A program made the position numbers and the translations under genes. This document shows, piece by piece, positions 23,707-61,043 of a stretch of DNA of 64,000 nucleotides. Position 1 is the first letter of the stretch. Every line of letters starts with the position of its first letter. A model generated the notes under the pieces. The model was given only the letters and a program-made list of their open reading frames with translations, had not been told where the DNA came from and ran no database searches. Origin of the DNA: a virus; IMG/VR virus record IMGVR_UViG_3300045988_183134, positions 1 to 64,000 of that record; one strand, 5' to 3'.

Positions 23707-23794
23707 CAGATTTGTACGACAGATATCAAACACAAAATAGGGTTTACATTGAGCTGCTCAGTGGCCTTATGGCTGTTGGGTAGCTTTTTCTTTT
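23707..23794 (+). ncRNA. structured RNA cassette, family member (stand-alone)
   Basis: TTGTACGACAGATATCA box, TTTACATTG box, 14-bp stem GCTGCTCAGTGGCC/GGCTGTTGGGTAGC with five G.U pairs, then TTTTTCTTTT. Confidence 0.6.
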
Positions 23795-23812
23795 GTGCGA
23801 GTTGCGTACAAT
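23795..23812 (+). promoter_or_regulatory. dyad-box promoter copy lacking a -35 hexamer
   Basis: GTGCGAG ttgcg TACAAT immediately after the preceding T-tract. Confidence 0.5.
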
Positions 23813-23836
23813 AAAAACCAAGCGGAGGAAACGACG

Positions 23837-24244
23837 ATGAAAAAATTTATTGGAATTGTTTTAGTGTTGTGCTGCCTGGCTCTACCTTTGGCTGGCTGTG
23901 AGGACGCAATCAGCACTGTGACAAGTACCACAATGTCTGAACTCGAAGATATTCCGAGTCAGATATTGTCTACACCAGAAAGTGCTGAGACAGTACCGGA
24001 ATACAATTACATTCATTTTCGCTACGACAATATTTGGACCGTATCCGCTCTCGTAAGCTACGAAATCGTGGACAACGGGCAAAACATCAAGTTTGAAATC
24101 AACGATAGCCGTTATCGTGATAAAGTCTTTTATACCAGCATGTCCAATGTCGAGCTCGTATACCGCGACGATAGCGTTGATTATCGCACGGACTATGCTG
24201 TTTATCCTGGTAACACCTCGAAGTTTGACAGGAAGGGAAAATGA
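23837..24244 (+). CDS. lipoprotein
   Basis: GGAGGAAA RBS; signal peptide MKKFIGIVLVLCCLALPLAGC with an LAGC lipobox. Confidence 0.7.
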   Translation: MKKFIGIVLVLCCLALPLAGCEDAISTVTSTTMSELEDIPSQILSTPESAETVPEYNYIHFRYDNIWTVSALVSYEIVDNGQNIKFEINDSRYRDKVFYTSMSNVELVYRDDSVDYRTDYAVYPGNTSKFDRKGK

Positions 24245-24245
24245 C

Positions 24246-24716
24246 ATGAGTATTAAATTTATCGACGGCAATATTTTTTCACGACTTTCTGCGAGTAAGC
24301 CAACTTACATTTGCCAGCAAGTAAATTGCAAAGGCGTGATGGGAGCTGGACTTGCCATGCAAATTTGCATCCAATGGCCGGTGGTATATCAGCGCTATCT
24401 GGAGTTTTGCTATGGAAACAACGGCAACAAGCTCGGTACTTACCAGGAGGTTCTGGTAGAACCGAAACTGTATGTCGTGAATCTGTTCGGGCAAAATGGT
24501 TATGGCCGTGGTGAAAGGCAGACGAATTATGCTGCATTGGCGACTGCGCTGTTCTCGTTTTTTAGAGACTGCGCTCAAAAGAATCAGGACGTAACTATCC
24601 GGCTGCCATATGGCTTAGGCTGTGGCCTTGCCGGAGGCGATTGGAACACGGTTCTGGACATCATCAGCGATGCGGCTAAAGCCTGGAATGTAAATGTCGA
24701 GATTTGGAAGCTGTAA
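24246..24716 (+). CDS. Macro-domain (ADP-ribose binding/hydrolase) protein
   Basis: I.QQVNC.GVMGAGLA and LPYGLGCGLAGGDW motifs; start 2 nt after the previous stop. Confidence 0.85.
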   Translation: MSIKFIDGNIFSRLSASKPTYICQQVNCKGVMGAGLAMQICIQWPVVYQRYLEFCYGNNGNKLGTYQEVLVEPKLYVVNLFGQNGYGRGERQTNYAALATALFSFFRDCAQKNQDVTIRLPYGLGCGLAGGDWNTVLDIISDAAKAWNVNVEIWKL

Positions 24717-24774
24717 ATTGCTGGTGGGCGTTCTTTTTTGCCCAGAAGCAAGATGAAACATAGTAAAATAAAGC

Positions 24775-24802
24775 TTGCACATCTGTGCGAATCAGATATA
24801 AT
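24775..24802 (+). promoter_or_regulatory. dyad-box promoter, family copy
   Basis: TTGCAC atct GTGCGAA tcaga TATAAT. Confidence 0.65.
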
Positions 24803-24888
24803 AACCCTAATAAGATAAGAATTGTGCCCTGGCGGCTTCTGAATTGGATGCTGCCGGGGCATTTTTGTTTGTTAAGGAGAATTTGGCT

Positions 24889-30495: not shown

Positions 30496-30523
30496 TTGCC
30501 AAAATATACGAACGCCGTACAAT
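30496..30523 (+). promoter_or_regulatory. dyad-box promoter, family copy
   Basis: TTGCCA aaat ATACGAA cgccg TACAAT. Confidence 0.55.
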
Positions 30524-30616
30524 GTAAAGTGTGAACAGATACTAAGCAATCAGTAGGATTCACAATCTGTATTTTAAGCGGACTTATCCCATAGCGGGGT
30601 AGGTCCGCTTTTTTTG
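30524..30616 (+). ncRNA. structured RNA cassette, family member
   Basis: GTGAACAGATACTA box, TGTGAA/TTCACA helix, ATTCACAATCTG box, terminator AAGCGGACTT..AGGTCCGCTT followed by T7. Confidence 0.6.
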
Positions 30617-30634: not shown

Positions 30635-31795
30635 ATGAAAATCAAAAACAAGCTTTTACGGAGTACAGCGGCAATCATCGCTGCGCTCTTTGCACTCAGC
30701 TTCACCGGCTGCGGTCAGAATCCGATAATATCGGAAAGTCCATCCAGTATCGGGGTCGTCTCAGAAAGCACTGTGAGCAGTGACCAGACGGCTGGCGGTT
30801 CGGTGGACGGCAGCTTTACCATTCATTTTATAGACGTAGGGCAGGCGGATTCCGCTCTTGTTACCTGCGACGGCCACTCAATGCTCATTGATGGCGGCAA
30901 TGTCGATGATTCTAACCTCTTATATTCTGTTATGCAGCGTGAAACCGATGGGCACCTGGATTATGTCGTTGGGACTCACGCGCACGAAGACCACATCGGC
31001 GGCTTGTCCGGTGCTTTTGAGGCCGTCACTGCGAACATGACTCTATGCCCTGTGACAGAATACGACAGCAAAGCATTTCGGGACTTTGCAAGCTACGCGG
31101 AGCAAAAAGGCGGAGGCATCACGATACCGGATGTGGGTGAAACCTACACTCTGGGGGAAGCGGAATTCACGATAGTTGGTGTTAATTCTGTTCCCAATGA
31201 CACGAACAATACTTCGATTGTTTTGCGTATTGTCTATGGAGACACCTCGTTCCTCTTTACCGGAGATGCGGAACAGGAAGCGGAAAACGTGATACTTGCA
31301 TCGGGACAAGACATTCAGTCAACAGTTCTGAAAGTAGGGCATCATGGCTCAAGTACATCTACCTCAGAGGCTTTTCTGGATGCGGTAAATCCAACATATG
31401 CTGTGATTTCTTGTGGCACAGGGAACAGTTACGGTCATCCACATCAGGAAACACTCGACAAGTTGCAAAACAAAGGTGTCGAGGTTTATCGCACAGACCT
31501 GCTGGGTGATATTTACTGCACCTCGGATGGCAAAGAGGTAAGTTTCACTTCCGGTGAATATCATGATGAAAATCGGATTGAAGCCGGTAGTGCTGCAGAT
31601 TCCAAGGATGAACAGGACAAAGCTTCACTTGTCATAGACGAGACATACGTTCTGAACACGAGCACTATGAAGTTTCACAAACCCGATTGCTCTGCAGTCG
31701 AATCGATGAGTCAAAAGAATCGAATCGACTATATGGGGCCCCGCGATGAGCTCATCCAGGAAGGGTATTCGGCGTGTGGGATTTGCAAACCATAA
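30635..31795 (+). CDS. MBL-fold (ComEC/Rec2 C-terminal-like) hydrolase lipoprotein with a Cys-rich tail
   Basis: lipobox LSFTGC; HFIDVGQADS, DGG, GTHAHEDHIGG, TGD, VGHHGS motifs; C-terminal HKPDC..C.IC. Confidence 0.85.
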   Translation: MKIKNKLLRSTAAIIAALFALSFTGCGQNPIISESPSSIGVVSESTVSSDQTAGGSVDGSFTIHFIDVGQADSALVTCDGHSMLIDGGNVDDSNLLYSVMQRETDGHLDYVVGTHAHEDHIGGLSGAFEAVTANMTLCPVTEYDSKAFRDFASYAEQKGGGITIPDVGETYTLGEAEFTIVGVNSVPNDTNNTSIVLRIVYGDTSFLFTGDAEQEAENVILASGQDIQSTVLKVGHHGSSTSTSEAFLDAVNPTYAVISCGTGNSYGHPHQETLDKLQNKGVEVYRTDLLGDIYCTSDGKEVSFTSGEYHDENRIEAGSAADSKDEQDKASLVIDETYVLNTSTMKFHKPDCSAVESMSQKNRIDYMGPRDELIQEGYSACGICKP

Positions 31796-31813: not shown

Positions 31814-31841
31814 TCGACAAGCTGTGCGAACCGACTACAAT
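31814..31841 (+). promoter_or_regulatory. dyad-box promoter, family copy
   Basis: TCGACA agct GTGCGAA ccgac TACAAT. Confidence 0.6.
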
Positions 31842-31952
31842 AAAAATTGTACGATAGATAACATTCCATATCGAAAGGGTTTTATGCCTTTCGTACATTC
31901 ACAATTTCGCTTAAAGGGCGGACTTCCTGTTTTTAGGGAGCCCGCCCTTTTT
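31842..31952 (+). ncRNA. structured RNA cassette, family member
   Basis: TTGTACGATAGATAACA box, GTACGA/TCGTAC helix, ATTCACAATTTCG box, terminator GGGCGGACTTCC..GGGAGCCCGCCC followed by T5. Confidence 0.65.
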
Positions 31953-50032: not shown

Positions 50033-50041
50033 AAAAGCCAC

Positions 50042-50069
50042 TTGCACGAATGTGCGAACCGCCTAAAAT
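50042..50069 (+). promoter_or_regulatory. dyad-box promoter, family copy
   Basis: TTGCAC gaat GTGCGAA ccgcc TAAAAT. Confidence 0.6.
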
Positions 50070-50170
50070 AATAATTGCATAACAGATACCATCACTTACC
50101 TCCTAACTGAACATTAACAATCTGTCATGCTTGTAAGCAGACTCTCTTTTGAGGGCCTGCTTCTTTTTTT
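50070..50170 (+). ncRNA. structured RNA cassette, family member
   Basis: GCATAACAGATACCA box pairing with ATCTGTCATGC, ATTAACAATCTG box, terminator AAGCAGACTCTC..GAGGGCCTGCTT followed by T7. Confidence 0.6.
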
Positions 50171-50216
50171 GTATGTATTGATTAGAAACAAAATTATTTT
50201 AGAAAGGATGAATACC

Positions 50217-50456: not shown

Positions 50457-50496
50457 CGTTCCCAAAAAAACAAATGAATCACAACCCATTACTCAT

Positions 50497-50532
50497 GCGG
50501 TAGGGCAGCATTGCTGTTCTGCCGCTATTTTT
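50497..50532 (+). terminator. intrinsic terminator
   Basis: GCGGTAGGGCAGC..GCTGTTCTGCCGC stem (three G.U pairs) followed by TATTTTT. Confidence 0.65.
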
Positions 50533-50538
50533 GTTTTT

Positions 50539-50793: not shown

Positions 50794-50795
50794 CA

Positions 50796-51278
50796 ATGCT
50801 TAATCCAAATATCAATAATGCTCTCGAAACCAATTCAAGCAAAGCGGTGCTTCTCAGCATCAAAAAGCAATGGCTTGAAAAGATTCTGAGCGGAGAAAAG
50901 ACCATTGAGGTCCGAAAAACCATGCCGTGGGAAATCAGCTATCCTTTTGTGGTGTTTTGCTACGAGACAAAAGCTGATGGTGGTGCCGGAAAAGTAACTG
51001 CTGCATTTGTTTGCCGAGACATCGATACGCTCGACTGTCTGCGTGAACTCCCGGCATATGCTATTGGCACAAAAGTAACCGAAAAGACCGCTCGATTCGT
51101 CAAGGATAGCTGCCTTACCGCAAACGAGCTGATTGCATACGGCAATAAGTCTGGCACTCTATATGGTTGGAACGTCTCTGACATCCAATCTATGGATATG
51201 TCACTGCGAGAGCTTGGCGTTAAGCGAGCACCACAGTCCTGGATGTATCTGCAAGTTCCCAACGACAAGACGTTCTGA
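50796..51278 (+). CDS. ASCH (PUA-like) domain protein
   Basis: LLSIKKQWLEKILSGEKTIEVRK typical N-terminal ASCH strand pair; alternative start at 50790. Confidence 0.7.
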   Translation: MLNPNINNALETNSSKAVLLSIKKQWLEKILSGEKTIEVRKTMPWEISYPFVVFCYETKADGGAGKVTAAFVCRDIDTLDCLRELPAYAIGTKVTEKTARFVKDSCLTANELIAYGNKSGTLYGWNVSDIQSMDMSLRELGVKRAPQSWMYLQVPNDKTF

Positions 51279-51324
51279 ACGATGCCTGTTGGGGCTGGCT
51301 GCATGTGCGGACCAAGCAAAACAT

Positions 51325-51392
51325 CTACTGCACGATAGAATAAATCGTGCAAACAAAGCAGACTCTCAATTCTTGAGGGCCTGCTATTTTTT
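51325..51392 (+). ncRNA. structured RNA cassette, short family member without a convincing own promoter
   Basis: GCACGATAGAATAAATCGTGC hairpin, terminator AAGCAGACTCTC..GAGGGCCTGCT followed by ATTTTTT; the upstream GTGCGGA box has a poor -10. Confidence 0.5.
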
Positions 51393-51411
51393 ATTTCAGG
51401 AGGAAATAACC

Positions 51412-51951
51412 GTGATTCTTTATCATATCATGGCAGACACCGGATGCCTGCCGGACGATGTCATTCCACAGATACCTACGAATCGGATGAAAGGGGAGGA
51501 CCAGGAAATCCCAAGAATTTGTCTTGGGCATACCCTTGACGACTGCCTGACCAGCATCGGCATTGCGCATTTTGTCTCAAAATTCCTGCTCGCTGAGCTG
51601 CGTCAGAACAAAAAATACTCCAAGGACATGCCGTTACCGTTCATTGTCCGAATGTACAACATCAAGGACGAAGACCCGAATCTCTTGACCGAGGAAGAAA
51701 CACAGAAATATGTGGCGGATTCTGTCGTGACCAGTGAATGCTGGCTCACAAGATACGAGAAACCCGTCAAAATCCAGAAACTTTGGCTTGTGGGCGGCGA
51801 AGTGGTGCTTTGGCCCTATATCGTTGACGGCGTTGTATACAATTACCCAATCGTCCGTAACTCAATTTGGGCAGACAGCAAAACCTTGCCGGACCCGGAA
51901 TTTCAGAATCAAATCATGGATATCACTCAGAAATGGCTTAACGAAGCCTGA
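51412..51951 (+). CDS. hypothetical protein
   Basis: GTG 7 nt after AGGAGGAAA, downstream of the cassette terminator; 179 aa. Confidence 0.6.
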   Translation: MILYHIMADTGCLPDDVIPQIPTNRMKGEDQEIPRICLGHTLDDCLTSIGIAHFVSKFLLAELRQNKKYSKDMPLPFIVRMYNIKDEDPNLLTEEETQKYVADSVVTSECWLTRYEKPVKIQKLWLVGGEVVLWPYIVDGVVYNYPIVRNSIWADSKTLPDPEFQNQIMDITQKWLNEA

Positions 51952-51973
51952 AAAAGAAGCACATCAAAAGCTC

Positions 51974-52001
51974 TTGCACATCCTTGCGAATTCCATAGTA
52001 T
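51974..52001 (+). promoter_or_regulatory. dyad-box promoter, family copy
   Basis: TTGCAC atcc TTGCGAA ttcca TAGTAT. Confidence 0.55.
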
Positions 52002-52110
52002 TAAAGTTGTACGACAGATAACATCTACTTGGCACGCCGCGTGCTCGTACAATTCATAATTCTGTTCTCATTCAAGGCAGACTCATCTTCATGATGGGCC
52101 TGCCTTTTTT
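52002..52110 (+). ncRNA. structured RNA cassette, family member
   Basis: TTGTACGACAGATAACA box, GTACG/CGTAC helix around GCACG-CCG-CGTGC, ATTCATAATTCTG box, terminator AAGGCAGACTC..GGGCCTGCCTT followed by T6. Confidence 0.65.
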
Positions 52111-52202
52111 GTTTACAGAAAAAGGAGGAATTAAAAACAAACCACAAATCTCAAATCACAATCTTCCGCTACAAGGAAAAGACACAAAAAAGGAGTCACA
52201 AA

Positions 52203-53030
52203 ATGAAAGTCGAAAAGAATAATAACAGCATTTTTCGGAACAAGCATGTCCTGGTTGTCGTCGCGGTGATGTGTATTTTTACCATCATCGCCTGCATGGG
52301 TTTTATGCTTTCTGTTCCTGCACACGCAGAGGAAAACATAGCTCCCAAAACCGAACCTATCGCTTTTTCCACTCCCATTGAAACGGTGAATGAGCTCGAT
52401 AAAGCGTTCCCGATAACGGAAACTTCCGAAGAAGCACAGGAGGAAATTACAACTGCTGAGGTCGAATCTTCCGATGCTGCAGAACCGGAACCACGGATTG
52501 AGACCGCAGAAGCAGCCATCGAAGAAGCCAAACCGAAACCCGAGACAATCCCAGATAATCTCAACGACAATGAGCTTGAAATCTACACAGCTCTGCGGTC
52601 CGCTGGCCTTTCCAAGGCCGGTACTGCCGCAGTGATGGGCTGCATGTCGATGGAGAGTGGTCTTAACGCTTCAGCCGAAAACCCTTCGGATGGCGGCTAT
52701 GGACTCCTGCAATGGACTTATAGCCGAAAGACAGACCTTTTCAACTGGTGTTATGGCAATGGCTATGACACCAACACCGTTACGGGACAGGTGATGTTCT
52801 TCGTGTATGAGCTCAATAGCACATACAGCAAGGCCGCCAAATACTCATATCCGGTGTACGAAACTCTTACTACAAGCGACAGCCTGGAAGATTGCCTTTC
52901 GATGTTCTTCTCCCATATGGAAGCAGGAACCAACGTGATAATCTCTTCCCGCAAAGTCTATGCAGGAGGGCTGACCACGTTAGACCTGTACCGCAAACGC
53001 TTAACTGCCGCTTACAAATACTTCATTTGA
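52203..53030 (+). CDS. phage tail-lysozyme-like peptidoglycan hydrolase with an N-terminal signal anchor
   Basis: AAGGAG RBS; TM VLVVVAVMCIFTIIACMGFML; GCMSMESGLNASAEN..GGYGLLQWT matches the tail-lysozyme signature as I recall it. Confidence 0.7.
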   Translation: MKVEKNNNSIFRNKHVLVVVAVMCIFTIIACMGFMLSVPAHAEENIAPKTEPIAFSTPIETVNELDKAFPITETSEEAQEEITTAEVESSDAAEPEPRIETAEAAIEEAKPKPETIPDNLNDNELEIYTALRSAGLSKAGTAAVMGCMSMESGLNASAENPSDGGYGLLQWTYSRKTDLFNWCYGNGYDTNTVTGQVMFFVYELNSTYSKAAKYSYPVYETLTTSDSLEDCLSMFFSHMEAGTNVIISSRKVYAGGLTTLDLYRKRLTAAYKYFI

Positions 53031-53047
53031 ATTAGGAGGAAATCACA

Positions 53048-53383
53048 ATGAAAACAACCGTTTATCTGTCCCGAAAACTCTTGAACCAGTTAAAGGTAAA
53101 AGAAACCGAAAGCAAAGACCTTATGCTAACCCATAACCTACACAACATCATCATCAACGGTAAGCGTGTTGGCTGCTCAGGCCACATTCAGAACGTTCTC
53201 AACAATAAGTGCGTTTACGTCAGCACCGAAAAGAGTTGCTATCAGCCCTTGTCTGACAAGAACCTGGTTCGCTATGCCGCCAGTATGAAAGATTACTCCT
53301 CTGTATCGCTCGGTGCAAAAGGACGTAATCAGTTCGTGACCAATGATGAGTTGGTTGGAAAAATCATTGATATGCTCCGATAA
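53048..53383 (+). CDS. hypothetical protein
   Basis: 111-aa ORF with AGGAGGAAA RBS. Confidence 0.6.
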   Translation: MKTTVYLSRKLLNQLKVKETESKDLMLTHNLHNIIINGKRVGCSGHIQNVLNNKCVYVSTEKSCYQPLSDKNLVRYAASMKDYSSVSLGAKGRNQFVTNDELVGKIIDMLR

Positions 53384-53410
53384 GGGCATAAACAGAAAGA
53401 GAAAAAGCTC

Positions 53411-53581
53411 ATGAAAACCGGCATCAAGAGTCAGATAGTAATAGTATCTGCTGTGGCAGCTGTTCTGCTCATTGTTATGAGTGGCTGTGCAATTGCGGAG
53501 AGCATTACCTTTGAGAAGGTTGCTGTTCTCGCTGCAAGCGTACTTGCCTTGAACAAATGCTGCGGCATCCTGTTAAACTAA
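53411..53581 (+). CDS. 56-aa membrane or lipoprotein-like peptide (not in the ORF track)
   Basis: hydrophobic IVIVSAVAAVLLIVMSGC followed by a second hydrophobic stretch; weak RBS. Confidence 0.35.
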   Translation: MKTGIKSQIVIVSAVAAVLLIVMSGCAIAESITFEKVAVLAASVLALNKCCGILLN

Positions 53582-53593
53582 GGAGAAAAAATC

Positions 53594-54178
53594 ATGAAGA
53601 ATAAATACAAAGTTGTTGCCTTAGTTCCTTTGGAGTTCTCTGTTGAGGGAAGCTCCGATTCCAAAGAGGCAATCGAATCCATCAAAAACATTTTCGAAGC
53701 GTGTCGGGATGATAAAGACTACGCGGACATCGTTTTTGATGGTATCGAAGAGTCACTTCGTCACAACAGTATCGAGTACAAAGTTGAAGCCGTCCAGCAT
53801 GAACCTGAGGTGAAGGTAAATTCCGATATCCGTTCTGTTGCCTTCGATATCTGCGACTTCTTCGAGAACTATCTCGACGAAAACGGTATTTGCATCGTTT
53901 GCGATGATGCAGATGAGGAGCGGGAACGGAAAGACAATGAAAGCGGCGCGATGCTGTACGGCATGGAATATTGGCATCTCGTTGAGGATGTCGAGTTCTG
54001 GCTGAGTCACATGAGTGCGCAGGGAAAGCCGGTCATTACTTCTAAAATTTTGAAGGCGTTCGACGAACTTCTCGTATCCAAAAACCTCGGTAACTCCGTG
54101 CCAAGCGGCGATAATCGCTATCAACTGCACTCAAAGATTCTGAGTTGCTTGCGTTCTCGTGAGGAGGGGTTGGAATGA
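53594..54178 (+). CDS. acidic hypothetical protein
   Basis: 194-aa ORF with AAGGAG RBS. Confidence 0.65.
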   Translation: MKNKYKVVALVPLEFSVEGSSDSKEAIESIKNIFEACRDDKDYADIVFDGIEESLRHNSIEYKVEAVQHEPEVKVNSDIRSVAFDICDFFENYLDENGICIVCDDADEERERKDNESGAMLYGMEYWHLVEDVEFWLSHMSAQGKPVITSKILKAFDELLVSKNLGNSVPSGDNRYQLHSKILSCLRSREEGLE

Positions 54179-54705
54179 GCGCGAAAGGCTGGAACAGTCT
54201 GAAACCTATTACGACCCCTGACCAGATGTCCGCACCAATTCATTGGAACCCAATGAACGAGGATTGGAAAATGCGGCTTACCAAAAGCCAGATTTACAAC
54301 ACCTCTTCTGGTTTCGATACTCAAACGCTCGATGCTATGAAGAAGCTGCATGACAAAATCCTCACATTTGGCGGGGATGAAGTCTGCATGACGGAATTTG
54401 ACGAAGACGCCCCAAAAATCCTCAAACGCGGCCAATTCTTTTATGGCAGCAGCTATATGAGGAAAGGCCAGGATTGCCAGTGCCATTACAATTCTGCACG
54501 GCTTTGGTATAAAAACAAAGACCGGTGCTTTATTGCAACGGGCTATGCTCTTTCCGAAGACGGGCTCTGGCGCTGTCATTCCTGGGTCGTTCAGCCAATG
54601 GCACGCACCGTTCGCGTGTGGGAAACCACCGTCAAGCGTGTTGCCTATTTTGGCGTGGTTTTGACCAGCGAGGAATGCGAAGACTTTGTCGAGAACAACA
54701 CATAA
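54175..54705 (+). CDS. hypothetical protein
   Basis: 176 aa, ATGA start/stop overlap. Confidence 0.6.
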   Translation: MSAKGWNSLKPITTPDQMSAPIHWNPMNEDWKMRLTKSQIYNTSSGFDTQTLDAMKKLHDKILTFGGDEVCMTEFDEDAPKILKRGQFFYGSSYMRKGQDCQCHYNSARLWYKNKDRCFIATGYALSEDGLWRCHSWVVQPMARTVRVWETTVKRVAYFGVVLTSEECEDFVENNT

Positions 54706-54726
54706 CAATTGGGGAGGTTACCCAAC

Positions 54727-55728
54727 ATGGGTGAACAACTACATTTCAGTATGGATGGTGAGTTCCTCACCGCCATTGCACGTGACTGGTTCTGGAAGAT
54801 GGACAAGCCGTATAAAAAGTGTGAGGAGCTGCTGCTCTCCTGCATGATGGGTGGCAACGAGGAAGAAAAAAGGCATGTTTGCCAGGACATTATCGAAGGC
54901 CGGAAAAAACTTGTTGGTGTCAATGAGTTTGAACTTGTCGATGACAATGTTCATGTTCGTCCCCTCGGGCAGAAGGTTGAGGAGCTTCAACACAAGATGC
55001 TGGTCAATCAAATTCGTGAGGATATGATTGCACATCCGCTCAATTATGTTGACCGCTTTGCTATGACTGATAGCTATGAAACGCTCTGCACCAATGCAAA
55101 ACATCATTATATCGATTGCAGCTATGACGGTATCAAGTGCTTCCTCTATGGGAAAACGGGTTATTCTGATGCATTCAACAACGGTGCATGGCTTTTTACC
55201 CACCCAGACCTTGTTGCAGAATTCAATGGCGAACCGCTTCCTGAGCAGGAATCCAACCCGGAATTCTACAAAACCGATTTTTGGACCAAGCTTGCCTCTT
55301 GGATTGAAGCAAACATGAAAGGCACATCCGTTGAACGCCGTCAGCGACTGTACAACAGCTATATCAGTGATAGACCCATTCAGCATCAGCTGACCGAATA
55401 TGGTCTGATTGCTCCCGATGGCACCTGGTATGCCTGCGAGTTTGGCGAGCACGCTGCCCTGGCTGGCCGCATCATCATGCGCAATCGAGAAGCGTTTGGT
55501 CTTTCTGACCATGAAGTTCTCAATATGGCGTATGACTGGAGCGGCAAGGGTCTCGATTTCCTATATAAACGCGGTTGGATTGCCATTCGTAATCCTTCGA
55601 TGGGCAATACATTCCTCGATATGGATGAGACCAAAACCGCAACAAAAGCTCAAGTAAATACCATTTTTGACTATATTTCTAAATTCAACCGCTATGACAT
55701 GAATATTTCTAAAGTTATGGTTGACTAA
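54727..55728 (+). CDS. hypothetical protein
   Basis: ATG after GGGGAGG; 333 aa. Confidence 0.65.
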   Translation: MGEQLHFSMDGEFLTAIARDWFWKMDKPYKKCEELLLSCMMGGNEEEKRHVCQDIIEGRKKLVGVNEFELVDDNVHVRPLGQKVEELQHKMLVNQIREDMIAHPLNYVDRFAMTDSYETLCTNAKHHYIDCSYDGIKCFLYGKTGYSDAFNNGAWLFTHPDLVAEFNGEPLPEQESNPEFYKTDFWTKLASWIEANMKGTSVERRQRLYNSYISDRPIQHQLTEYGLIAPDGTWYACEFGEHAALAGRIIMRNREAFGLSDHEVLNMAYDWSGKGLDFLYKRGWIAIRNPSMGNTFLDMDETKTATKAQVNTIFDYISKFNRYDMNISKVMVD

Positions 55729-55743
55729 GAAGGAGATTTTATT

Positions 55744-56319
55744 ATGACTTCCAATATGACTATGACCGCTATTTCCATCTGTAATTTTCTGAAACTCATC
55801 GTGAAAAGCACGGTTGAGCATTACACCGAGGATTTCAAGCTGGACATAAAGATTTTTAAGCGCTATGCAAAAGAAGCGCAGGAAACTGGAAAGCCCGTAT
55901 CGATGCTCTGGTTCTGCCGCTCTTGTGGAACGTATCTCTGCCCTGAGGAAGATGCGTACAAGAAAGATACTCCCATGTTCATCACGTTCAAATACTATGA
56001 TGAGCAGGAAGAGGAAGAAGCCCGGACCATTAAGGCTTTTCTGGTCACTGTGACAGGGATGGAAGGACAAAAGCCAGTTGGCTATATCACTCCCATCAAC
56101 TATGCGGATGAATGTGACCGCATTCGCCGTTACGCAGTACCTGCCGAAAAGGTCGAGCTTGTCTATGATAAAGGTTCCCTTGTCCAGAACAATGGCAACT
56201 ATACGATTCTGAAGCATCCCAAGCTTGGTACACTTCAGAAAACGAAATTCTTGGCCGATGACCCTGACGCGCTTGATTATGCGCTGCATATGGCTCGCAA
56301 TGAGAGAAAGGCAGGGTAA
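55744..56319 (+). CDS. hypothetical protein
   Basis: 191-aa ORF with GAAGGAG RBS. Confidence 0.65.
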   Translation: MTSNMTMTAISICNFLKLIVKSTVEHYTEDFKLDIKIFKRYAKEAQETGKPVSMLWFCRSCGTYLCPEEDAYKKDTPMFITFKYYDEQEEEEARTIKAFLVTVTGMEGQKPVGYITPINYADECDRIRRYAVPAEKVELVYDKGSLVQNNGNYTILKHPKLGTLQKTKFLADDPDALDYALHMARNERKAG

Positions 56320-56324
56320 CAGCC

Positions 56325-56600
56325 ATGAAAACGATGGTTACATTGACTCACGAAGAAGCCCAAAGCTATTTGGCGTACGCTCTGATTTGCGAAACGATGG
56401 AAGGAGCCTTTTGGAATTCCGGACGCCGTCGCAGACTATACAGCAAGACGTTTACCGAAGCCGAACAGAGGCAGATTCCCCGCATCAAAGCCATTGCTCA
56501 CAAATGGTGTTTGGTTACTGGTGTTCCTGAAAAGGTACGCATGAGATACAGCACCTATTTGCTGTGGCAGAAACTCGCGATGTTCTGCGCTGAAATTTAA
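56325..56600 (+). CDS. hypothetical protein
   Basis: 91-aa ORF followed by the terminator at 56610. Confidence 0.55.
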   Translation: MKTMVTLTHEEAQSYLAYALICETMEGAFWNSGRRRRLYSKTFTEAEQRQIPRIKAIAHKWCLVTGVPEKVRMRYSTYLLWQKLAMFCAEI

Positions 56601-56609
56601 TTTTTCATT

Positions 56610-56638
56610 ACCGCTGCCCATTTGGGTGGCGGTTTTTT
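56610..56638 (+). terminator. intrinsic terminator
   Basis: ACCGCTGCCCA-TT-TGGGTGGCGGT followed by TTTTT. Confidence 0.7.
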
Positions 56639-56639
56639 G

Positions 56640-56667
56640 TTGCGGATTTATGCGAACGGCCTATAAT
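56640..56667 (+). promoter_or_regulatory. dyad-box promoter, family copy
   Basis: TTGCGG attt ATGCGAA cggcc TATAAT. Confidence 0.55.
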
Positions 56668-56770
56668 CAAAAATGTACGATAGATAACAGATATCGAAAA
56701 GGCATCCTGCCCTTCGCACACTTAACAATGCGCTTTAGGCGAACTTCCCATTTGGGCGGTTCGCCTTTTT
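56668..56770 (+). ncRNA. structured RNA cassette, family member
   Basis: ATGTACGATAGATAACA box, GAAAAGGCA/TGCCCTTC hairpin, CTTAACAATGCG box, terminator AGGCGAACTTCCC..GGGCGGTTCGCCT followed by T5. Confidence 0.65.
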
Positions 56771-56802
56771 GCGTATAATATAAAAGAAAGGACGTAATCC
56801 AA

Positions 56803-57042
56803 ATGAATGAGTACGAAGCAACAATACAAATCAACCCAACCGACGATATCAAGTTCATACTTGAGGAGTCCGGCTGCTATGAGTCTGAAATTGAAATGAT
56901 GAAGGCCGGTGGCACCTATGATGCGTTTGTCAAGCGTGTCTATGATGCCATCGACTGGTCTCATCTGTTTGAGCGTATTGCTCAGATGGAAAACGAAGCC
57001 ATCACGACAGCTATCGACAAATTGTCTGATAGCATAATTTGA
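56803..57042 (+). CDS. hypothetical protein
   Basis: 79-aa ORF with GAAAGGA RBS. Confidence 0.6.
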   Translation: MNEYEATIQINPTDDIKFILEESGCYESEIEMMKAGGTYDAFVKRVYDAIDWSHLFERIAQMENEAITTAIDKLSDSII

Positions 57043-57061
57043 TTGTTAGGAGGTAAATACT

Positions 57062-57634
57062 ATGTACATTCTCATTAAAAACCAGGAAGGCGAAAGCATG
57101 AACTTGCTTTCCCAGAATACCGATTTCAACGCTCTACTGACAGCCATGAAAACTGACATTGAGGCAGAGTACGAAAAGGCAACAGGTTATGCGATTGACC
57201 TTGACGAGGATTCCGGCAGCGATTATGAAGTCGGTATCAACGTTGAGGACAGTGCAGCAGACGGTTTCTGCCTTGCGTCCGGGTATATGTACGGCGCAGA
57301 CAGCAACTTTGACTGGGGCATTTTCAAAGTAAAGTCTCAGAAAAACAATGTCGCAGCGAAACCCTACATTAGCTTGGATATGAACAAGTTCTTTCGGCAG
57401 AAAATGCTGCTGATTGACCTCTCGGCAAAAGTAAAGGACCTCGGCTATGACCATCTGGCCGATGAGCTTTGGGGCGCAATCGGTGTCTTCGACGCTGTAC
57501 AGGATTCAGCTGAAGGAGACGGTGTTTTCACTGCTCCGGAAGCGGATGAAGAAACCGGTCTGTTCCTTGACGATTTTTATAACGACGTTCTGGAAAAGAT
57601 TCTGAACGCCGACAAGAAAAAGGAGGAAAAGTAA
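57062..57634 (+). CDS. acidic hypothetical protein
   Basis: 190-aa ORF with AGGAGG RBS. Confidence 0.65.
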   Translation: MYILIKNQEGESMNLLSQNTDFNALLTAMKTDIEAEYEKATGYAIDLDEDSGSDYEVGINVEDSAADGFCLASGYMYGADSNFDWGIFKVKSQKNNVAAKPYISLDMNKFFRQKMLLIDLSAKVKDLGYDHLADELWGAIGVFDAVQDSAEGDGVFTAPEADEETGLFLDDFYNDVLEKILNADKKKEEK

Positions 57635-57637
57635 GCC

Positions 57638-58123
57638 ATGAGACTCTACATCCAAGGCGAACACGGTAAGCTCCTAACTTTCACCCCGGAAGAAATCAAG
57701 GAAAAGCTCGGTATTCCATTCGATATCGCTGCTCTTGGCATCGAGGTAGATGATGGCGACACCACCATCAGGGCTCAGTCATACCCCAAATGGGATTATC
57801 AGAACGGGAACCCGCCCATTGACCTCTGTGTCAATGAAATGCAGGTTGGCTCACTGGCTATTCCGACGCCCAACATTCCGGCTCCCGTCATTTATCTTTA
57901 TGATGAACAGGGGCAGGATGAATTGGATTGGTTTGCATGTACCAGCTTTGCACCCCGTGCATCTGGTGACGAAAGTTCTCACGTCGTCTTCTGTGACATG
58001 AGTTTTGGCAATGCGTTTGCTACCACAGACGTTTTTGTGAATCCGCGCAAGGGAATTCCTTTCGTGCAGTGTTCCACTGAGAATCAACTTTCTGATTTCA
58101 GGAAAGCTGATTCCCATGAATAA
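57638..58123 (+). CDS. hypothetical protein
   Basis: 161-aa ORF with AAGGAGGAAA RBS. Confidence 0.65.
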   Translation: MRLYIQGEHGKLLTFTPEEIKEKLGIPFDIAALGIEVDDGDTTIRAQSYPKWDYQNGNPPIDLCVNEMQVGSLAIPTPNIPAPVIYLYDEQGQDELDWFACTSFAPRASGDESSHVVFCDMSFGNAFATTDVFVNPRKGIPFVQCSTENQLSDFRKADSHE

Positions 58124-58141
58124 TATCTGACTCGTATCTTT

Positions 58142-58173
58142 GCGGTCGTTCCTTTTGGAGCGACCGCTTTTTT
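58142..58173 (+). terminator. intrinsic terminator
   Basis: GCGGTCG..CGACCGC hairpin followed by TTTTTT. Confidence 0.75.
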
Positions 58174-58187
58174 GTTTTTTAGTTTTG

Positions 58188-58215
58188 TTGCACAAATGTG
58201 CGACTCTCTTAAAAT
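58188..58215 (+). promoter_or_regulatory. dyad-box promoter, family copy
   Basis: TTGCAC aaat GTGCGAC tctct TAAAAT. Confidence 0.6.
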
Positions 58216-58236
58216 AGAAATTAGGGAGGTGCTGTT

Positions 58237-58533
58237 TTGAAAATTCAGAGAATCGTGCCTGCAACTGCTCATTCTATGAAGGATGCTTTGCCACTTGGCA
58301 CTATCCTGACGGTGAAAAATGTTGCAGACCAGAAATATATTGTAGTGGGTTACGATACCAGTGCTGTTCCACACAACTACTACGCGGTTCCCTGGCCGCA
58401 GGGGTACATGGGCGAAGAAAACATGTACCTGGTAGGATTTGATGATATTGCGAAAGTTCTGTGTCGCGGCGGAATCAATGAGGAATCCAGAGTTTTCTTG
58501 CAGGCACTGGATGATGTGTTGAACGGGAGGTGA
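58237..58533 (+). CDS. hypothetical protein
   Basis: TTG start after GGGAGG; 98 aa. Confidence 0.55.
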   Translation: MKIQRIVPATAHSMKDALPLGTILTVKNVADQKYIVVGYDTSAVPHNYYAVPWPQGYMGEENMYLVGFDDIAKVLCRGGINEESRVFLQALDDVLNGR

Positions 58534-58537
58534 CACG

Positions 58538-58753
58538 GTGACGGTAAAAGAGCTGAAGCATATGCTTGAGAACGCGGACGACAATGCTATCGTCGTTGTG
58601 CGAAATAACTGGGCTCCGGCGGAATTCCTGAATACCTCTGCTCGGAAGATGGTGCTTGTGAAAGCAAATGGCAAGCTCATGACGCCGAAACGGGCCGAGG
58701 CGAGCGGGTATATCTGCGAAGGCCCTGCTATGTCGGCAATTTTATTCGATTGA
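58538..58753 (+). CDS. hypothetical protein
   Basis: GTG start after GGGAGGTG; 71 aa. Confidence 0.5.
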   Translation: MTVKELKHMLENADDNAIVVVRNNWAPAEFLNTSARKMVLVKANGKLMTPKRAEASGYICEGPAMSAILFD

Positions 58754-58766
58754 GGTGAGAAAAATC

Positions 58767-59096
58767 ATGCCCGATAAAAAAGTGGCCACGCAGGCATCTG
58801 ATGGACCCTGGGAACGCGAAACCATCATCACATTCAATGATGCAGAGAAGAAAGCATCCTACTACACCTGCAACAAAGCTCGTATGGAACAGCTAAAAGA
58901 GCTTGCCAAAGAATACCCTGATGCTGTTAAAATCACGCGGGATGAGGACTGGTGTATGGAGGCAGATATGCCCAAGAAATGGGTCAAAATCAAGCCGCCT
59001 CGCAAGCTGACCGAAGAGCAATATGCGGAACTGGTCAGACGCGGCAAAGAACTTGCAGAGCGGCAGCGACAGGCAAAGAACTTAGTGAAGGAATAA
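58767..59096 (+). CDS. hypothetical protein
   Basis: ATG after GAGGTGAG; 109 aa. Confidence 0.6.
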   Translation: MPDKKVATQASDGPWERETIITFNDAEKKASYYTCNKARMEQLKELAKEYPDAVKITRDEDWCMEADMPKKWVKIKPPRKLTEEQYAELVRRGKELAERQRQAKNLVKE

Positions 59097-59130
59097 TCCG
59101 GCTTCATATGCCGGAAGAGGAGGATATAAA

Positions 59131-59748
59131 ATGTATAATTCTTACAGCGCATTGAATCTTTTGGGCGGTATGCTCTACACGGTGATTCTTTTGGTAGTGG
59201 CGTATTTTGTGCTCAAAATCGTCGCCAATTGGAAAATTTTTGAGAAGGCCGGGCAGCCTGGCTGGGCATCCATCGTCCCGTTCTACAGCAACTACATCGA
59301 ATTCAACATTTACTGGGGGAACGGCTGGTTGTTTCTGATTCCGGTCGTGCTGAGCCTTTTGTCTGGCATCCCGCTGCTCGGCAATCTGTTCCTGGTTGTT
59401 GCTCTCATCATCGGTGCTATTACCAACTACAAGAAAGCTGTTGCGTTCGGTGAAGGTATTGGTTTCACGATTGGTCTTTGCCTTCTGAATCCGGTGTTCA
59501 ACATGATTCTTGCTTTCGGCCATTATGAGTATCACGGTATCCCGCAGGATGGCTATTCCTATTCTCAGCTCAAGACCAAATATGAGGAAAAGAAAGCCGA
59601 ACAGCAGAACAACCCCAGTACTGTTCAGTACCAGGCCCCCGAAACTCCCAAAGAGCCGAGCCAAAATGTTCAGTATCAGACTCCGAATGCTCCTGCTGAA
59701 GTCAAGACCCAGCCGACTCAGCAAAATCAAAATCAGGACAATGGCTGA
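59131..59748 (+). CDS. DUF5684-like multi-pass membrane protein
   Basis: AGGAGG RBS; WKIFEKAGQPGWASIVPFY motif plus 3-4 TM segments; Q/P-rich tail. Confidence 0.65.
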   Translation: MYNSYSALNLLGGMLYTVILLVVAYFVLKIVANWKIFEKAGQPGWASIVPFYSNYIEFNIYWGNGWLFLIPVVLSLLSGIPLLGNLFLVVALIIGAITNYKKAVAFGEGIGFTIGLCLLNPVFNMILAFGHYEYHGIPQDGYSYSQLKTKYEEKKAEQQNNPSTVQYQAPETPKEPSQNVQYQTPNAPAEVKTQPTQQNQNQDNG

Positions 59749-59941
59749 TATTATTTGGGTCGTTGTGTTTCTCTGCGTTCTCATCGCGTCCTGCTTTGGA
59801 ATGTACTATTTCCAGGGTGAGAACAAACAAAAATTTGTGTTTTGCTTTTTGCTGGTAGCATTATCTTTTGGAGTTCTTGCGTTTCGACTCCTGGATATTG
59901 CCTACACAATGATAAACGCAGCTGTCAAAGCCGCACAATGA
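59741..59941 (+). CDS. small membrane protein
   Basis: 66 aa, ATG overlaps the previous stop; two TM segments. Confidence 0.5.
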   Translation: MADIIWVVVFLCVLIASCFGMYYFQGENKQKFVFCFLLVALSFGVLAFRLLDIAYTMINAAVKAAQ

Positions 59942-59943
59942 CC

Positions 59944-60004
59944 TTTTTGCAATTCTCAAACTGTTTTTTTGGCAGACCTTCCAACCGAGGGCCTGCCCTT
60001 TTTA
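59944..60004 (+). ncRNA. partial cassette (3' half only) acting as an inter-gene terminator
   Basis: AATTCTCAAACTG box, then GGCAGACCTTCC..GAGGGCCTGCC followed by CTTTTTA; no promoter or 5' box. Confidence 0.5.
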
Positions 60005-60025
60005 TTGTTGCCAGGAGGAAAATCT

Positions 60026-60907
60026 ATGAAAATCCGATTCTATACAACCAACAAGGAAGCTATTGTATTCGACCTTGAGGATATTTTGAAGCAGCTCAAC
60101 ATTGAAGAGCAGGTAGCCACTGTCGGTCTTGTCATTGAAAAAGACGAGGCCGAGGTTGAGGCAATCGCTCAGACAATACAAGACGATTATCCGAACATGT
60201 ATCTCCAGGCAAAAGAATACGGACGGAATCTGACCTTGGCTTGTGCGGAGCTTCCGAACCCTACTAACCCAGATATTGTAACCTACCTCTATGCGGGCGA
60301 TGATGCTACGGAAACTGACAGTTGGATTGCGAAAGTGAACAACACAATTCGTGCGCAAGGGGATAACAGTGAACGGCTCATCCATATTGACTCGAATCTC
60401 GCTGCCGTGGTAGAAGCAAACGAAACGGAACAAGGATACTATGCTTCCACCGTGTCGCAGCATGACAAGGCCACAAACGAAATGCTGAGTTTTCGACAGA
60501 TTGCAGAGTCGTTGGAAGCTGTTGGGGATAACTACAAGTACCAGAGCGCAAGCAACATTCTGACTGCAAGAACCAAAGCAGAGCGGAACTATATTGTCCG
60601 GCTTATCAAGATGTATTGCGACGATACTAAATACCTTGCTGGTTCTATGCCGCAAAGTGAGAACCCGTTCTGTGTCCAGAACGTTGACGCTCTGAACCAG
60701 CGCGATGCGCAGTGGTCCGAAATCAAAGAGTATCTTGCACAGGACGAGAATCGCAACAAGCTGGATGTGATTCTTGGCTTCGTGCCGGATGAGGAGAGCG
60801 ACAAGACTCTAATTCTGCGCAGCATTGAAGAAAAAGGGAAGGCCATGTCTGATTCTGAAATCGAAAAAGCATATAATTTGCTGTTTGGTGACTGTAGCAA
60901 TGGATGA
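60026..60907 (+). CDS. hypothetical protein
   Basis: ATG after AGGAGGAAA; 293 aa. Confidence 0.65.
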   Translation: MKIRFYTTNKEAIVFDLEDILKQLNIEEQVATVGLVIEKDEAEVEAIAQTIQDDYPNMYLQAKEYGRNLTLACAELPNPTNPDIVTYLYAGDDATETDSWIAKVNNTIRAQGDNSERLIHIDSNLAAVVEANETEQGYYASTVSQHDKATNEMLSFRQIAESLEAVGDNYKYQSASNILTARTKAERNYIVRLIKMYCDDTKYLAGSMPQSENPFCVQNVDALNQRDAQWSEIKEYLAQDENRNKLDVILGFVPDEESDKTLILRSIEEKGKAMSDSEIEKAYNLLFGDCSNG

Positions 60908-60913
60908 ATAATC

Positions 60914-60941
60914 TTGCGCTTTCGTGCGAGACCCGTATAAT
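60914..60941 (+). promoter_or_regulatory. dyad-box promoter, family copy
   Basis: TTGCGC tttc GTGCGAG acccg TATAAT. Confidence 0.6.
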
Positions 60942-61043
60942 TTAGCTTGTACGATAGATACCATCTACTAAGCACACTGTGTGCTCGTACAATTCACACT
61001 TCGCTTTAAGGCGGACTTCCCACACCGGGAGGTTCGCCTTTTT
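60942..61043 (+). ncRNA. structured RNA cassette, family member
   Basis: TTGTACGATAGATACCA box, AGCACAC/GTGTGCT hairpin closed by GTACG/CGTAC, ATTCACACTTCG box, terminator AAGGCGGACTTCCC..GGGAGGTTCGCCTT followed by T5. Confidence 0.65.

Follow-up and report, generated by a model that had tools for sequence, protein, structure and literature searches.

In phage lambda, the constitutive promoter pR' is followed at once by qut, a conserved, initially transcribed and strictly promoter-proximal box with a -10-like hexamer, and the short 6S RNA is ended by the intrinsic terminator tR', 194 nt from the start and ahead of the regulated genes. In the RAT/CAT systems (BglG, SacY, LicT) a weak upstream hairpin, with conserved sequence in or adjoining it, reaches into the 5' arm of a far stronger terminator and prevails only with a factor bound to it. 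Lambda N/nut, HK022 put, EAR, the LoaP hairpins and conAn2 have structured leader RNA 5' of terminators, where it could act on polymerase; put and EAR occur once per operon and need not sit at +1, and conAn2 spans 260-600 bp (PMC8191782). The T4-type PeSL is a composite promoter/terminator motif found at mosaic junctions between small variable early genes (PMC2839356, PMC4122927), in which the stem-loop lies 5' of the promoter and ends the preceding unit, with no conserved transcribed leader (PMC4122927). Here we analyse a viral DNA of 64,000 nt (IMG/VR record IMGVR_UViG_3300045988_183134, positions 1-64,000; this whole stretch is called the window) in which a cassette consisting of a promoter, a structured leader and an intrinsic terminator recurs ahead of many genes.

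The cassettes reproduce the lambda traits listed above, but they are repeated many times per genome where pR' occurs once, their leader carries a selected RNA structure and an alternative hairpin overlapping the terminator, the distance from start to terminator is about 100 nt and the host appears to be of Firmicutes type. They resemble RAT/CAT in the overlap of a weak hairpin, which would need a bound factor, with the 5' arm of a strong terminator; unlike RAT/CAT they are viral and multi-copy and have an extra invariant 5'-terminal domain fused to the promoter. With the nut group they share the structured leader RNA, and their hairpin plus single-stranded box recalls boxB plus boxA of lambda nut; in contrast to put and EAR they always sit at +1, and a terminator comes within ~40 nt behind each of these RNA elements. 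The position between small variable genes and the mosaic junctions are as in PeSL, whereas the stem-loop comes after the promoter and leader and so separates a promoter from the gene it serves. In their way of working the cassettes are closest to the lambda Q/qut and N/nut gates and to RAT/CAT, and the sequences or proteins by which each of these is recognised were not seen in the cassettes or in the window and its ~10-kb flanks. Conditional read-through, i.e. antitermination, is the most economical reading of the cassettes, and we assign a probability of roughly 45% to their being distributed, factor-dependent conditional-termination leaders that together form an antitermination regulon.

A first-pass annotation of this DNA had described a family of nine members. 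We read the cassette sites (23707-61043) and placed their elements to the base (Table 1). The module is present where it had been located, on the + strand, but not as nine equal members: four copies are canonical (31849, 52009, 56675, 60949), two are divergent but full (30531, 50077), two are promoter-less remnants (51325, 59944) and one is degenerate (23707). Seven sites share one rigid + strand frame, in which a -35 (TTGCAC-like), 5 nt, the spacer box TGCGAA, 5 nt and a -10 (TAnAAT) are followed after 7 nt by the leader, a GC-rich hairpin with a T-run, a Shine-Dalgarno site and a start codon. The leader opens with an invariant 5' box, GUACGAYAGAUAMCA, and its tail is a second invariant sequence, the single-stranded box 2 (AAUUCACAAU). 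The 12-mer GTACGAYAGATA occurs exactly five times, on the + strand only (23714, 31849, 52009, 56675, 60949); with up to two mismatches there are 12 matches in the window, against a shuffle mean of 4.6, and 0 of 100 shuffles reach 12. A hand-annotated covariance model, built from related sequences and run without filters on both strands of the window, gave the matches of Table 1; the next-ranked ones (36664, 58110 and others) are ordinary terminators, and the 23707 copy has no match at E<10. From a plain MAFFT alignment RNAalifold had recovered the terminator alone, owing to misalignment in the variable region, and the hand-annotated model was used in its place. The window cassette RNAs fold far better than shuffles (z -3.7 to -6.7); the best copy, cassette 8, has a minimum free energy of -36.6 kcal/mol with a predicted three-way junction and 14-bp terminator, and in cassette 1 the terminator alone folds (z -2.8). 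The spread of the cassettes is uneven and clustered in part of the genome, with none at 1-23 kb of the window and one weak model match only in the 10 kb beyond it.

Relatives were collected by an exact-pattern scan of IMG/VR with the 16-nt 5' box, which found at least 116 stretches on contigs of 17-389 kb. Among the matches listed there are at least 171 box instances, 126 of them unique: 115 are followed by a run of at least five T ending 78-108 nt after the box start, four more are real cassettes with weaker T-runs and seven are chance matches in coding sequence. The counts over 114-115 distinct copies given below rest on these 5'-box-recruited copies, among the matches listed. Scans anchored elsewhere led to the same leader. 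When anchored on box 2, the scan met the same 5' box in exact form in 85 of 100 cases and in near-exact form in 12; when anchored on box 2 and the terminator, 96 of 99 matches lay behind a recognisable promoter, all with ..AGATAC.. present. The invariance of the 5' box is therefore real, though partly an effect of recruitment.

The cassette promoters are of the sigma-A, host type. The gap between -10 and 5' box, put at about 8 nt in the first-pass annotation, is 7 nt in 7/7 promoter-bearing window copies and in 104/114 relatives. Among the 115 unique copies, 114 have a -10 hexamer 6-7 nt 5' of the box together with a TGCGA spacer box, and in none was the box seen away from a promoter or inside an operon. 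The predicted transcript start falls at, or 1 nt before, the invariant 15-nt box, which thus occupies +1/+2 onwards. So strict a fusion fits a lambda pR'-like logic, with an event at or near the start site. The spacer box had been taken as the factor site of the cassettes, an assignment that does not hold: some 17 promoters of the TGCGAA class lie on the window + strand, 7 with a leader and ~10 leaderless, so that the box is a feature of the promoter and not of the cassette. A conserved box mid-way in a 17-nt spacer is unusual, and its fixed place suggests a contact with a factor or the polymerase that is common to this phage's promoters.

Single-sequence folds of ~80 distinct copies agree on a predicted three-way junction. 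In it the 5' end GUACG(A) pairs with (U)CGUAC (P1), the rest of the box enters P2 in one of three forms (UAGAU-ACC-AUCUA, UAGA-UAACAU-UCUA or GAUAA-CAG-UUAUC), and P3, a GC-rich hairpin of variable sequence, stacks on the 3' strand of P1; minimal copies, e.g. that at 5022 of locus L012 (L012:5022), do without P3. When 114 distinct sequences were aligned to the model, 93.7% of the cells were paired, where column shuffles gave 84.5% and slid partners no more than 50%, and two-sided changes were found at 4/4 P3 pairs and 9/13 terminator pairs. P1 and P2 show no two-sided change in these 114 relatives, because their 5' strands are invariant. Copies with divergent 5' ends vary in the first 4-5 bases (GUGCG, GUUCG, GAACG, GCAUG, GUGAA, GCAUAA), and the partner is then CGUGC by way of two wobble pairs, box 2 (30531 type) or a segment past box 2 (50077 and GCAUG types); one P2 pair has a clean A-U to G-C change (L018:7611 and L059). 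Since the varied 5' ends each have another partner, what is conserved is a paired 5' terminus plus the sequence RAYAGAUAMYA. This modifies the covarying closing helices of the first-pass annotation: the differing 5' ends do have matching partners, but the positions are not homologous, the 3' strand being box 2 itself in 30531 and lying 3' of box 2 in 50077. Likewise, the ACAGAT/ATCTGT pairing holds in the 50077 sub-type only, and the canonical TCTGY belongs to segment X (see below). The divergent copies are not singular: six unique relatives have the sub-type of cassette 2, and the GCATGATAGATACCA sub-type among the relatives is related to cassette 4, whose predicted closing helix counts 10 bp with one interior mismatch.

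An aptamer-like three-way junction followed by alternative antiterminator and terminator hairpins is also what a riboswitch-like or tRNA-sensing leader would look like, with a small molecule or RNA bound at the junction controlling the terminator. We hold this to be very improbable. The junction strands are variable (CUAAG, CAAAG, CUUGG, CUUUU), and conservation lies in helix strands and in the tail outside the junction; P3 is dispensable in the minimal copies; P1 is 20-35 nt from the terminator, leaving the aptamer-like domain without overlap with the expression platform; none of 4227 Rfam families matches, and the downstream genes are mutually unrelated.

The 5' box also bears on a second alternative, which acts on DNA as Q/qut does and which we consider unlikely. 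Here, -10-like hexamers of the non-template strand (TACGAT at +2..+7, and TACAAT/CACAAT in the P1 3' strand/box 2) would hold sigma and pause the early complex; a phage factor loading at these sites would render the polymerase resistant to the terminator, as at lambda pR'-qut-tR', with only a secondary part left to the RNA hairpins. The fixed 7-nt distance from the -10 (104/114), the absence of the box within operons, boxes that are invariant rather than covarying, hexamers that carry A2 and T6 of a -10 element (TACGAT, CACAAT/TACAAT/CATAAT) and a terminator close behind, as in lambda, are all in agreement with it, and since the strict +1 position favours recognition of a 5' terminus or of an early elongation complex, a Q-like sigma-pause variant keeps some plausibility. 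However, TACGAT, noted as -10-like in the first-pass annotation and present at +2..+7 in canonical copies, is less well kept than another part of the box: divergent copies keep AGATAC, which is not -10-like, and the rest of the box, and in several of them the hexamer is not -10-like, becoming TGCGAT, TTCGAT, GAACAG or CATAAC, several (TGCGAT, TTCGAT, GAACAG) without the A at position 2. The spacer box, as said, is equally present in ~10 leaderless promoters, no Q-family protein was seen in the window and ~10 kb on each side, and P3 covariation, the non-homologously paired 5' end and the asymmetric constraint on the terminator 5' arm are features of RNA. The parallel with lambda pR'-qut-6S RNA-tR' drawn in the first-pass annotation is therefore only partly supported: the promoter-fused leader and terminator stand, while the spacer box is unspecific and the conserved core is not -10-like.

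The leader runs into a 12-16-bp stem with a mean hairpin energy of -21.7 kcal/mol, followed by at least five U; the RNA measures 84-108 nt to the end of the T-run (median 100), and a Shine-Dalgarno site follows ~14 nt past the U-tract. With a GC-rich hairpin, a U-tract and compensatory change, these are intrinsic terminators. Their G.U pairs had been said to fit + strand RNA only, in agreement with what we find: one pair is U.G in 79/114 sequences. The 5' arm, GC(G/A)GACU, is nearly invariant in the 114 sequences, and is constrained in sequence past the need for pairing. The A of GGACU is kept in ~111/114, even though the base opposite is U in 61 sequences and C, a mismatch, in 52, and the U of GACU is kept in 110/114 although its partner is G in 83, where C would pair better. 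Change is thus tolerated on the 3' arm and not on the 5' arm, an asymmetry foreign to a symmetric DNA site.

Just 3' of box 2 sits a segment of 5-7 nt, X (UUCGC, UCUGC, UCUGU), for which two successive partners are predicted. In RNA cut before the terminator 3' arm, 89/96 unique copies form a hairpin of X with the 5' arm (GCRGAC), with a mean of -4.7 kcal/mol against -1.5 for shuffled X and lower energies than the shuffles in 58/59; its variable pair is U:A in 23, C:G in 21, U:G in 6 and C:A in 2 copies, compatible with pairing in 50/52. In the models, this hairpin behaves as a weak antiterminator overlapping the terminator 5' arm. Past the U-tract, X finds a second partner, Y (UUCUGCA/UGCAGAA, UUCUGU/ACAGAA, AUGCGC/GCGUAU, CUGGC/GCCGG, UCGCAC/GUGCGG). 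The duplexes of X with its own Y average -4.43 kcal/mol and those with swapped partners -3.39, and 0/5000 permutations were as low. In cassette 6 the perfectly complementary X and Y enclose the terminator in the read-through RNA, and cassette 7 has a 6-bp X:Y helix, AUGCGC/GCGUAU. Given that Y acts only in read-through RNA and that X:Y is partner-specific, the read-through RNA is a selected product. Shared descent inflates both the X:5'-arm and the X:Y statistics; the variety of complementary pairs argues for more than descent. As a separate observation, a promoter-like TTGGGC-16 nt-TATAAT lies at window 56752-56779 (+), in and just after the cassette 7 terminator; its TATAAT overlaps Y (GCGTATAAT), relatives of the same sub-type carry GCGTATAAA, and it may be a second start or chance.

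Selection on read-through RNA stands against the idea that the ~100-nt terminated RNAs are themselves the product, either as abundant trans-acting base-pairing regulators or as decoys or sponges for host proteins. Near-consensus promoters and efficient-looking terminators would indeed give abundant short RNAs, the single-stranded conserved box 2 might serve as a seed or bind a protein, and the gene behind cassette 1 has a promoter of its own, leaderless and directly after the cassette (23796-23812, serving the gene at 23837), which would leave a short RNA as the sole product there. Nevertheless, in 103/115 unique copies a Shine-Dalgarno site and a start codon follow on the same strand, no more than 60 nt past the T-run, and complements of box 2 or the 5' box are not enriched in the window. 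For these reasons the small-RNA alternative of the first-pass annotation was not upheld, and we think it highly unlikely.

The main rival, which we nonetheless judge rather unlikely, is a constitutive module: the 5' three-way junction would block decay from the 5' end, the terminator would be a fixed attenuator or insulator that sets a level, the X:Y helix a processing site (e.g. for RNase III) or a stabiliser, and the cassettes would double as recombination joints at which early genes are shuffled, which would keep their sequences identical. Known stabilisers in Firmicutes include helices that begin at +1, the layout predicted for the cassettes. Moreover, X:Y, the A/U-tract and the terminator make up a nearly continuous duplex of >20 bp in read-through RNA only, mosaic junctions fall at cassettes (L039/L052; L006/L039), and the promoter-less remnants (51306, 59951) persist as plain terminators. 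What such a module leaves unexplained is the invariance of 15 + 10 nt and of GACU while neighbouring helices drift, as a stabiliser needs pairing only, and the presence of a -21.7 kcal/mol terminator before nearly every gene of a region if it were never relieved; leaderless promoters of the same class show, too, that expression as such can do without the leader.

Conditional termination accounts for these features as follows. A terminator between promoter and gene, invariant RNA, a weak alternative hairpin and selected read-through lead us to infer a trans-acting factor. Each cassette would be a cis-acting 5' leader that makes downstream expression conditional on read-through of the terminator ~100 nt from the start. 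In nascent RNA, X would pair with the 5' arm before the 3' arm of the terminator is made, and after read-through it would pair with Y, locking the terminator into a long helix. The factor, most likely a phage protein expressed from a leaderless promoter, may recognise the invariant RNA (5' box/P2, box 2 and GACU of the 5' arm) and suppress termination, by stabilising the X:5'-arm antiterminator in a RAT-like manner or by modifying the polymerase as N, Q, put or LoaP do. The fixed +1 position suggests that a free paired 5' terminus or the early elongation complex is recognised; the paired terminus probably also stabilises the read-through mRNA. Without the factor, the cassette promoters would yield only the ~100-nt RNAs. 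As the same leader stands ahead of many units, these would switch on together, as a delayed-early regulon. The distributed antitermination switch considered in the first-pass annotation is consistent with our results, the leaders being promoter-proximal and the strong terminators directly 5' of ribosome-binding sites.

Several points weigh against this reading. Termination, read-through and timing at the cassettes are all deduced from sequence, and a constitutive attenuator or stabiliser would give the same sequence picture. Compared with the terminator, the hairpin of X and the 5' arm has very little stability; its covariation comes down to two main sub-families, which common descent could mimic. 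Covariation cannot confirm P1 and P2, and recruitment of most sequences by the exact box inflates their apparent invariance. Finally, in a search that covered the window and ~10 kb on each side, out of a genome of 224-247 kb, no candidate antitermination factor was identified. Pfam and PHROG were run on ~90 window proteins and precomputed Pfam was used for the flanks; no match, in PHROG or in Pfam, is to an antiterminator-type family, and Pfam shows neither Q, N-like, NusG/LoaP KOW, CAT/PRD or ANTAR nor any other. A look at the small basic or arginine-rich proteins of the window gave nothing convincing, with no small protein having an arginine-rich N-terminus.

Sequence resemblance to the known sites is equally lacking. 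The RAT consensus reads GGAUUGUUACUG..., to which the cassettes show no resemblance, and no CAT/PRD Pfam match occurs in the window and its ~10-kb flanks. There is no boxA or boxB consensus of lambda nut in the cassettes, box 2 is unlike boxA, and the loops are ACC or UAACAU in P2 and variable, not GNRA-like, in P3. Nor is the layout that of a type III toxin-antitoxin system, each locus having a single leader, with no ToxI-like tandem repeats, and unrelated downstream genes where such a system has a conserved endoribonuclease gene.

The genes behind the cassettes are mutually unrelated and mostly of unknown function, e.g. a protein with a tail-lysozyme domain and small open reading frames. That of cassette 2 (30635-31795, +) encodes a lipoprotein-like product, with a signal peptide ending in Cys and a metallo-beta-lactamase fold, a faint precomputed match to the anti-Pycsar Apyc1 family and the PHROGs class 'tail protein'. 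The genes behind leaderless promoters, a possible source of the factor, include one for a helicase and three tandem multi-helix-turn-helix (HTH)/Mor-like regulator genes at 36948-38941. This trio (36948-37475, 37465-37983 and 37988-38941, +), behind the leaderless promoter 36819, has ~2, 2 and ~6 repeated HTH units with matches to Mor, HTH_23/28, HTH_7 and sigma-70 region 4, and a further Mor-family protein is encoded at 3376-3729. The trio and this protein are candidates for regulating the promoter class or the cassettes.

The cassette is a new RNA family, unusual in being fused to the transcription start and multiplied across a phage genome. At the gathering score, Rfam 15 (4227 families) reported only tRNAs and one HDV-like ribozyme in the whole window and nothing at the cassettes; at E up to 5, the interval 49900-61200 gave two chance-level matches (mir-965; IsrM, 16 bits vs gathering 376). 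This bears out the first-pass statement that no described RNA family has these boxes. A full-text literature search for the box sequences returned nothing relevant. Among the candidate structured RNAs catalogued in bulk from IMG/VR phages, many are motifs with a terminator that lie 5' of genes, and the cassette may be one of them (PMC10690425); neither that paper nor those on conAn2 (PMC8191782) and PeSL (PMC4122927) gives a description, name or function for it.

The module is confined to large phage contigs (17-389 kb) of one clade, with many copies per genome: 832 kb of cassette-bearing IMG/VR loci hold 188 covariance-model matches at E<1e-4, and additional loci hold further copies. A 5'-box scan of a bacterial genome collection gave, among the matches listed, little besides isolated chance matches scattered over unrelated taxa; the only contig seen to carry true cassettes has 223,830 bp and comes from a 'Clostridiales' metagenome-assembled genome (MAG), which is most likely a binned phage, and no host-chromosomal copy was seen. 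Megablast of 49-62 kb against 50,697 phage records found no match, so there is no studied relative among these isolates; tblastn of the helicase against isolate phages aligned only a 7% stretch, in Staphylococcus jumbo phages. One window protein recurs with identical sequence in several human-gut studies, on contigs of 136-247 kb, and occurs in 212 blocks of the metagenome collection, so this phage is common and large, with a genome of about 224-247 kb. Promoters, Shine-Dalgarno sites and the MAG label point to a Firmicutes-type host. It is possible, if somewhat doubtful, that a widespread clade of large human-gut phages, probably of Clostridia, has a genome-wide antitermination regulon with dozens of units under the same leader and terminator, opened by a factor that reads the invariant RNA parts (5' box/P2, box 2 and GACU). 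We would suggest with similar reserve that such a regulon represents a new antiterminator/RNA pair, the +1-fused and genome-multiplied layout not being described for N, Q, put, LoaP or RAT.

Mosaicism is seen directly in the relatives. Loci L039 (- strand, offset 4455) and L052 (offset 2145) share the upstream flank and leader and have different genes past the T-run; L006 (offset 10670) and L039 share both flanks and differ within the leader. Cassettes lie at mosaic junctions in L275, L283 and L315 as well. Two relatives of window 57-63 kb carry RRXRR-HNH endonuclease genes (L237, 6450-7847 and 12585-13847; L240, 6778-8040) that are missing from the window and from other relatives at the same intergenic positions, and look like mobile homing-type insertions.

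Table 1. Cassettes and other mapped features of the window. Promoters are given as -35 / spacer box / -10; match, covariance-model match; z, folding score against shuffles.
Feature	Extent	Strand	Type	Match; z	Promoter	Leader	Box 2, X and Y	Terminator and T-run	Gene start
Cassette 1	23679..23794	+	degenerate		TTGACC / TGCGAG / TACAAT 23679-23706	5' box GTACGACAGATATCA 23714-23728; no P1 3' strand	weak box-2-like TTTACATT 23743-23750	16 bp, 23751-23786, unrelated to family type; T-rich tail to 23794	
Cassette 2	30496..30616	+	divergent	30539 (+), 36 bits; z -6.0	TTGCCA / TACGAA / TACAAT 30496-30523	start GTGAACAGATACTA 30531-30544; 5' end GUGAA pairs with UUCAC of box 2	box 2 ATTCACAAT 30558-30566	30576-30610; T-run to 30615	30635
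Cassette 3	31814..31952	+	canonical	31849 (+), 75 bits; z -6.2	TCGACA 31814-31819 / TGCGAA 31825-31830 / TACAAT 31836-31841	5' box 31849-31863; P3 31872-31893; P1 3' strand 31891-31896	box 2 ATTCACAAT 31897-31905; X TTCGC 31906-31910; no clear Y	31913-31950; T-run to 31952	31979
Cassette 4	50042..50170	+	divergent	50083 (+), 27 bits; z -3.95	TTGCAC / TGCGAA / TAAAAT 50042-50069	GCATAACAGATACCA 50077-50091 pairs with ATCTGTCATGC 50120-50130, 3' of box 2	box 2 ATTAACAAT 50113-50121	50135-50162; T-run to 50170	50208 or 50217
Cassette 5	51306..51392	+	remnant	51305 (+), 32 bits	decayed: TGCGGA 51306-51311, no usable -10	hairpin GCACGATAGAATAAATCGTGC 51330-51350 with 5'-box relic		family type, AAAGCAGACTC..GGGCCTGCT 51355-51385; T-run to 51392	51412
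Cassette 6	51974..52120	+	canonical	52009 (+), 93 bits; z -4.6	TTGCAC 51974-51979 / TGCGAA 51985-51990 / TAGTAT 51996-52001	5' box 52009-52023; P3 52032-52044; P1 3' strand 52045-52050	box 2 AATTCATAAT 52051-52060; X TTCTGT 52060-52065; Y ACAGAA 52115-52120	52074-52106; T-run to 52110	
Cassette 7	56640..56776	+	canonical sub-type with weakened P1	56675 (+), 58 bits; z -3.7	TTGCGG 56640-56645 / TGCGAA 56651-56656 / TATAAT 56662-56667	5' box 56675-56689; P3 56701-56711; TCGCAC 56714-56719	box 2 CTTAACAAT 56721-56729; X ATGCGC 56728-56733; Y GCGTAT 56771-56776	56737-56766; T-run to 56770	56803
Cassette 8	60914..61049 (promoter through segment Y)	+	canonical, best copy	60949 (+), 106 bits, E 1e-22; z -6.7	TTGCGC 60914-60919 / TGCGAG 60925-60930 / TATAAT 60936-60941	5' box GTACGATAGATACCA 60949-60963; P3 hairpin 60972-60984; P1 3' strand TCGTAC 60985-60990	box 2 AATTCACACT 60991-61000; X TTCGC 61000-61004; Y GCG 61044-61046	stem-loop 61008-61040; T-run to 61043	61068
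Cassette 9	59951..60003	+	remnant	59933 (+), 24 bits	none	no 5' box	box-2-like AATTCTCAAACTG 59951-59963	family type, GGCAGACC..GGGCCTGCC 59971-59997, T-run	60026
TGCGA boxes	7511, 11113, 13438, 21901, 23169, 23690, 23796, 24786, 30507, 31825, 36819, 47442, 50053, 51985, 56651, 58199, 60925	+	promoter spacer box						
PLD/NgoFVII-like nuclease	934-3099								
AcrVA2-like protein	5024-5911		precomputed Pfam						
ResIII/DEAD helicase	7869-10064								
Triple treble-clef zinc-finger protein	13950-15818								
EcoRI-type adenine methylase	15853-16905								
TIR-domain protein	16902-17663								
GmrSD-N + HNH nuclease	17678-18814								

Elsewhere in the window, the stretch 934-19305 is rich in genes of defence or counter-defence type (Table 1). 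The HDV-like ribozyme is that of F. prausnitzii (RF02682; 41927-42007, +; 47.9 bits vs gathering 44) and ends 4 nt 5' of a tRNA-Thr (42012-42087). Ribozyme-tRNA fusions are reported in gut phages, and this pair resembles them. The tRNA opens an array of 17 tRNAs (42012-46906, +), including two tRNA-Asn(GTT), two tRNA-Thr and two tRNA-Ser; in one ARAGORN call, at 43436-43511 ('tRNA-???', anticodon 'ca'), the anticodon loop is abnormal, and Rfam does not report this tRNA.

If the cassettes are conditional terminators, they would open the temporal programme of abundant uncultivated gut phages to simple tests: one RNA signature would mark every gene of a temporal class, and so sort genes of unknown function by expression class. 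A short list would gain a new RNA family and, probably, a new factor for antitermination, and phages would be seen to be able to spread a lambda-like gate over dozens of promoters. The compact cassettes (~170 bp of promoter, leader and terminator) could also serve as regulated parts for Firmicutes. Even if they are a fixed attenuator, stabiliser and recombination joint, they would be the counterpart, in a Firmicutes phage, of the T4 PeSL shuffling cassettes.

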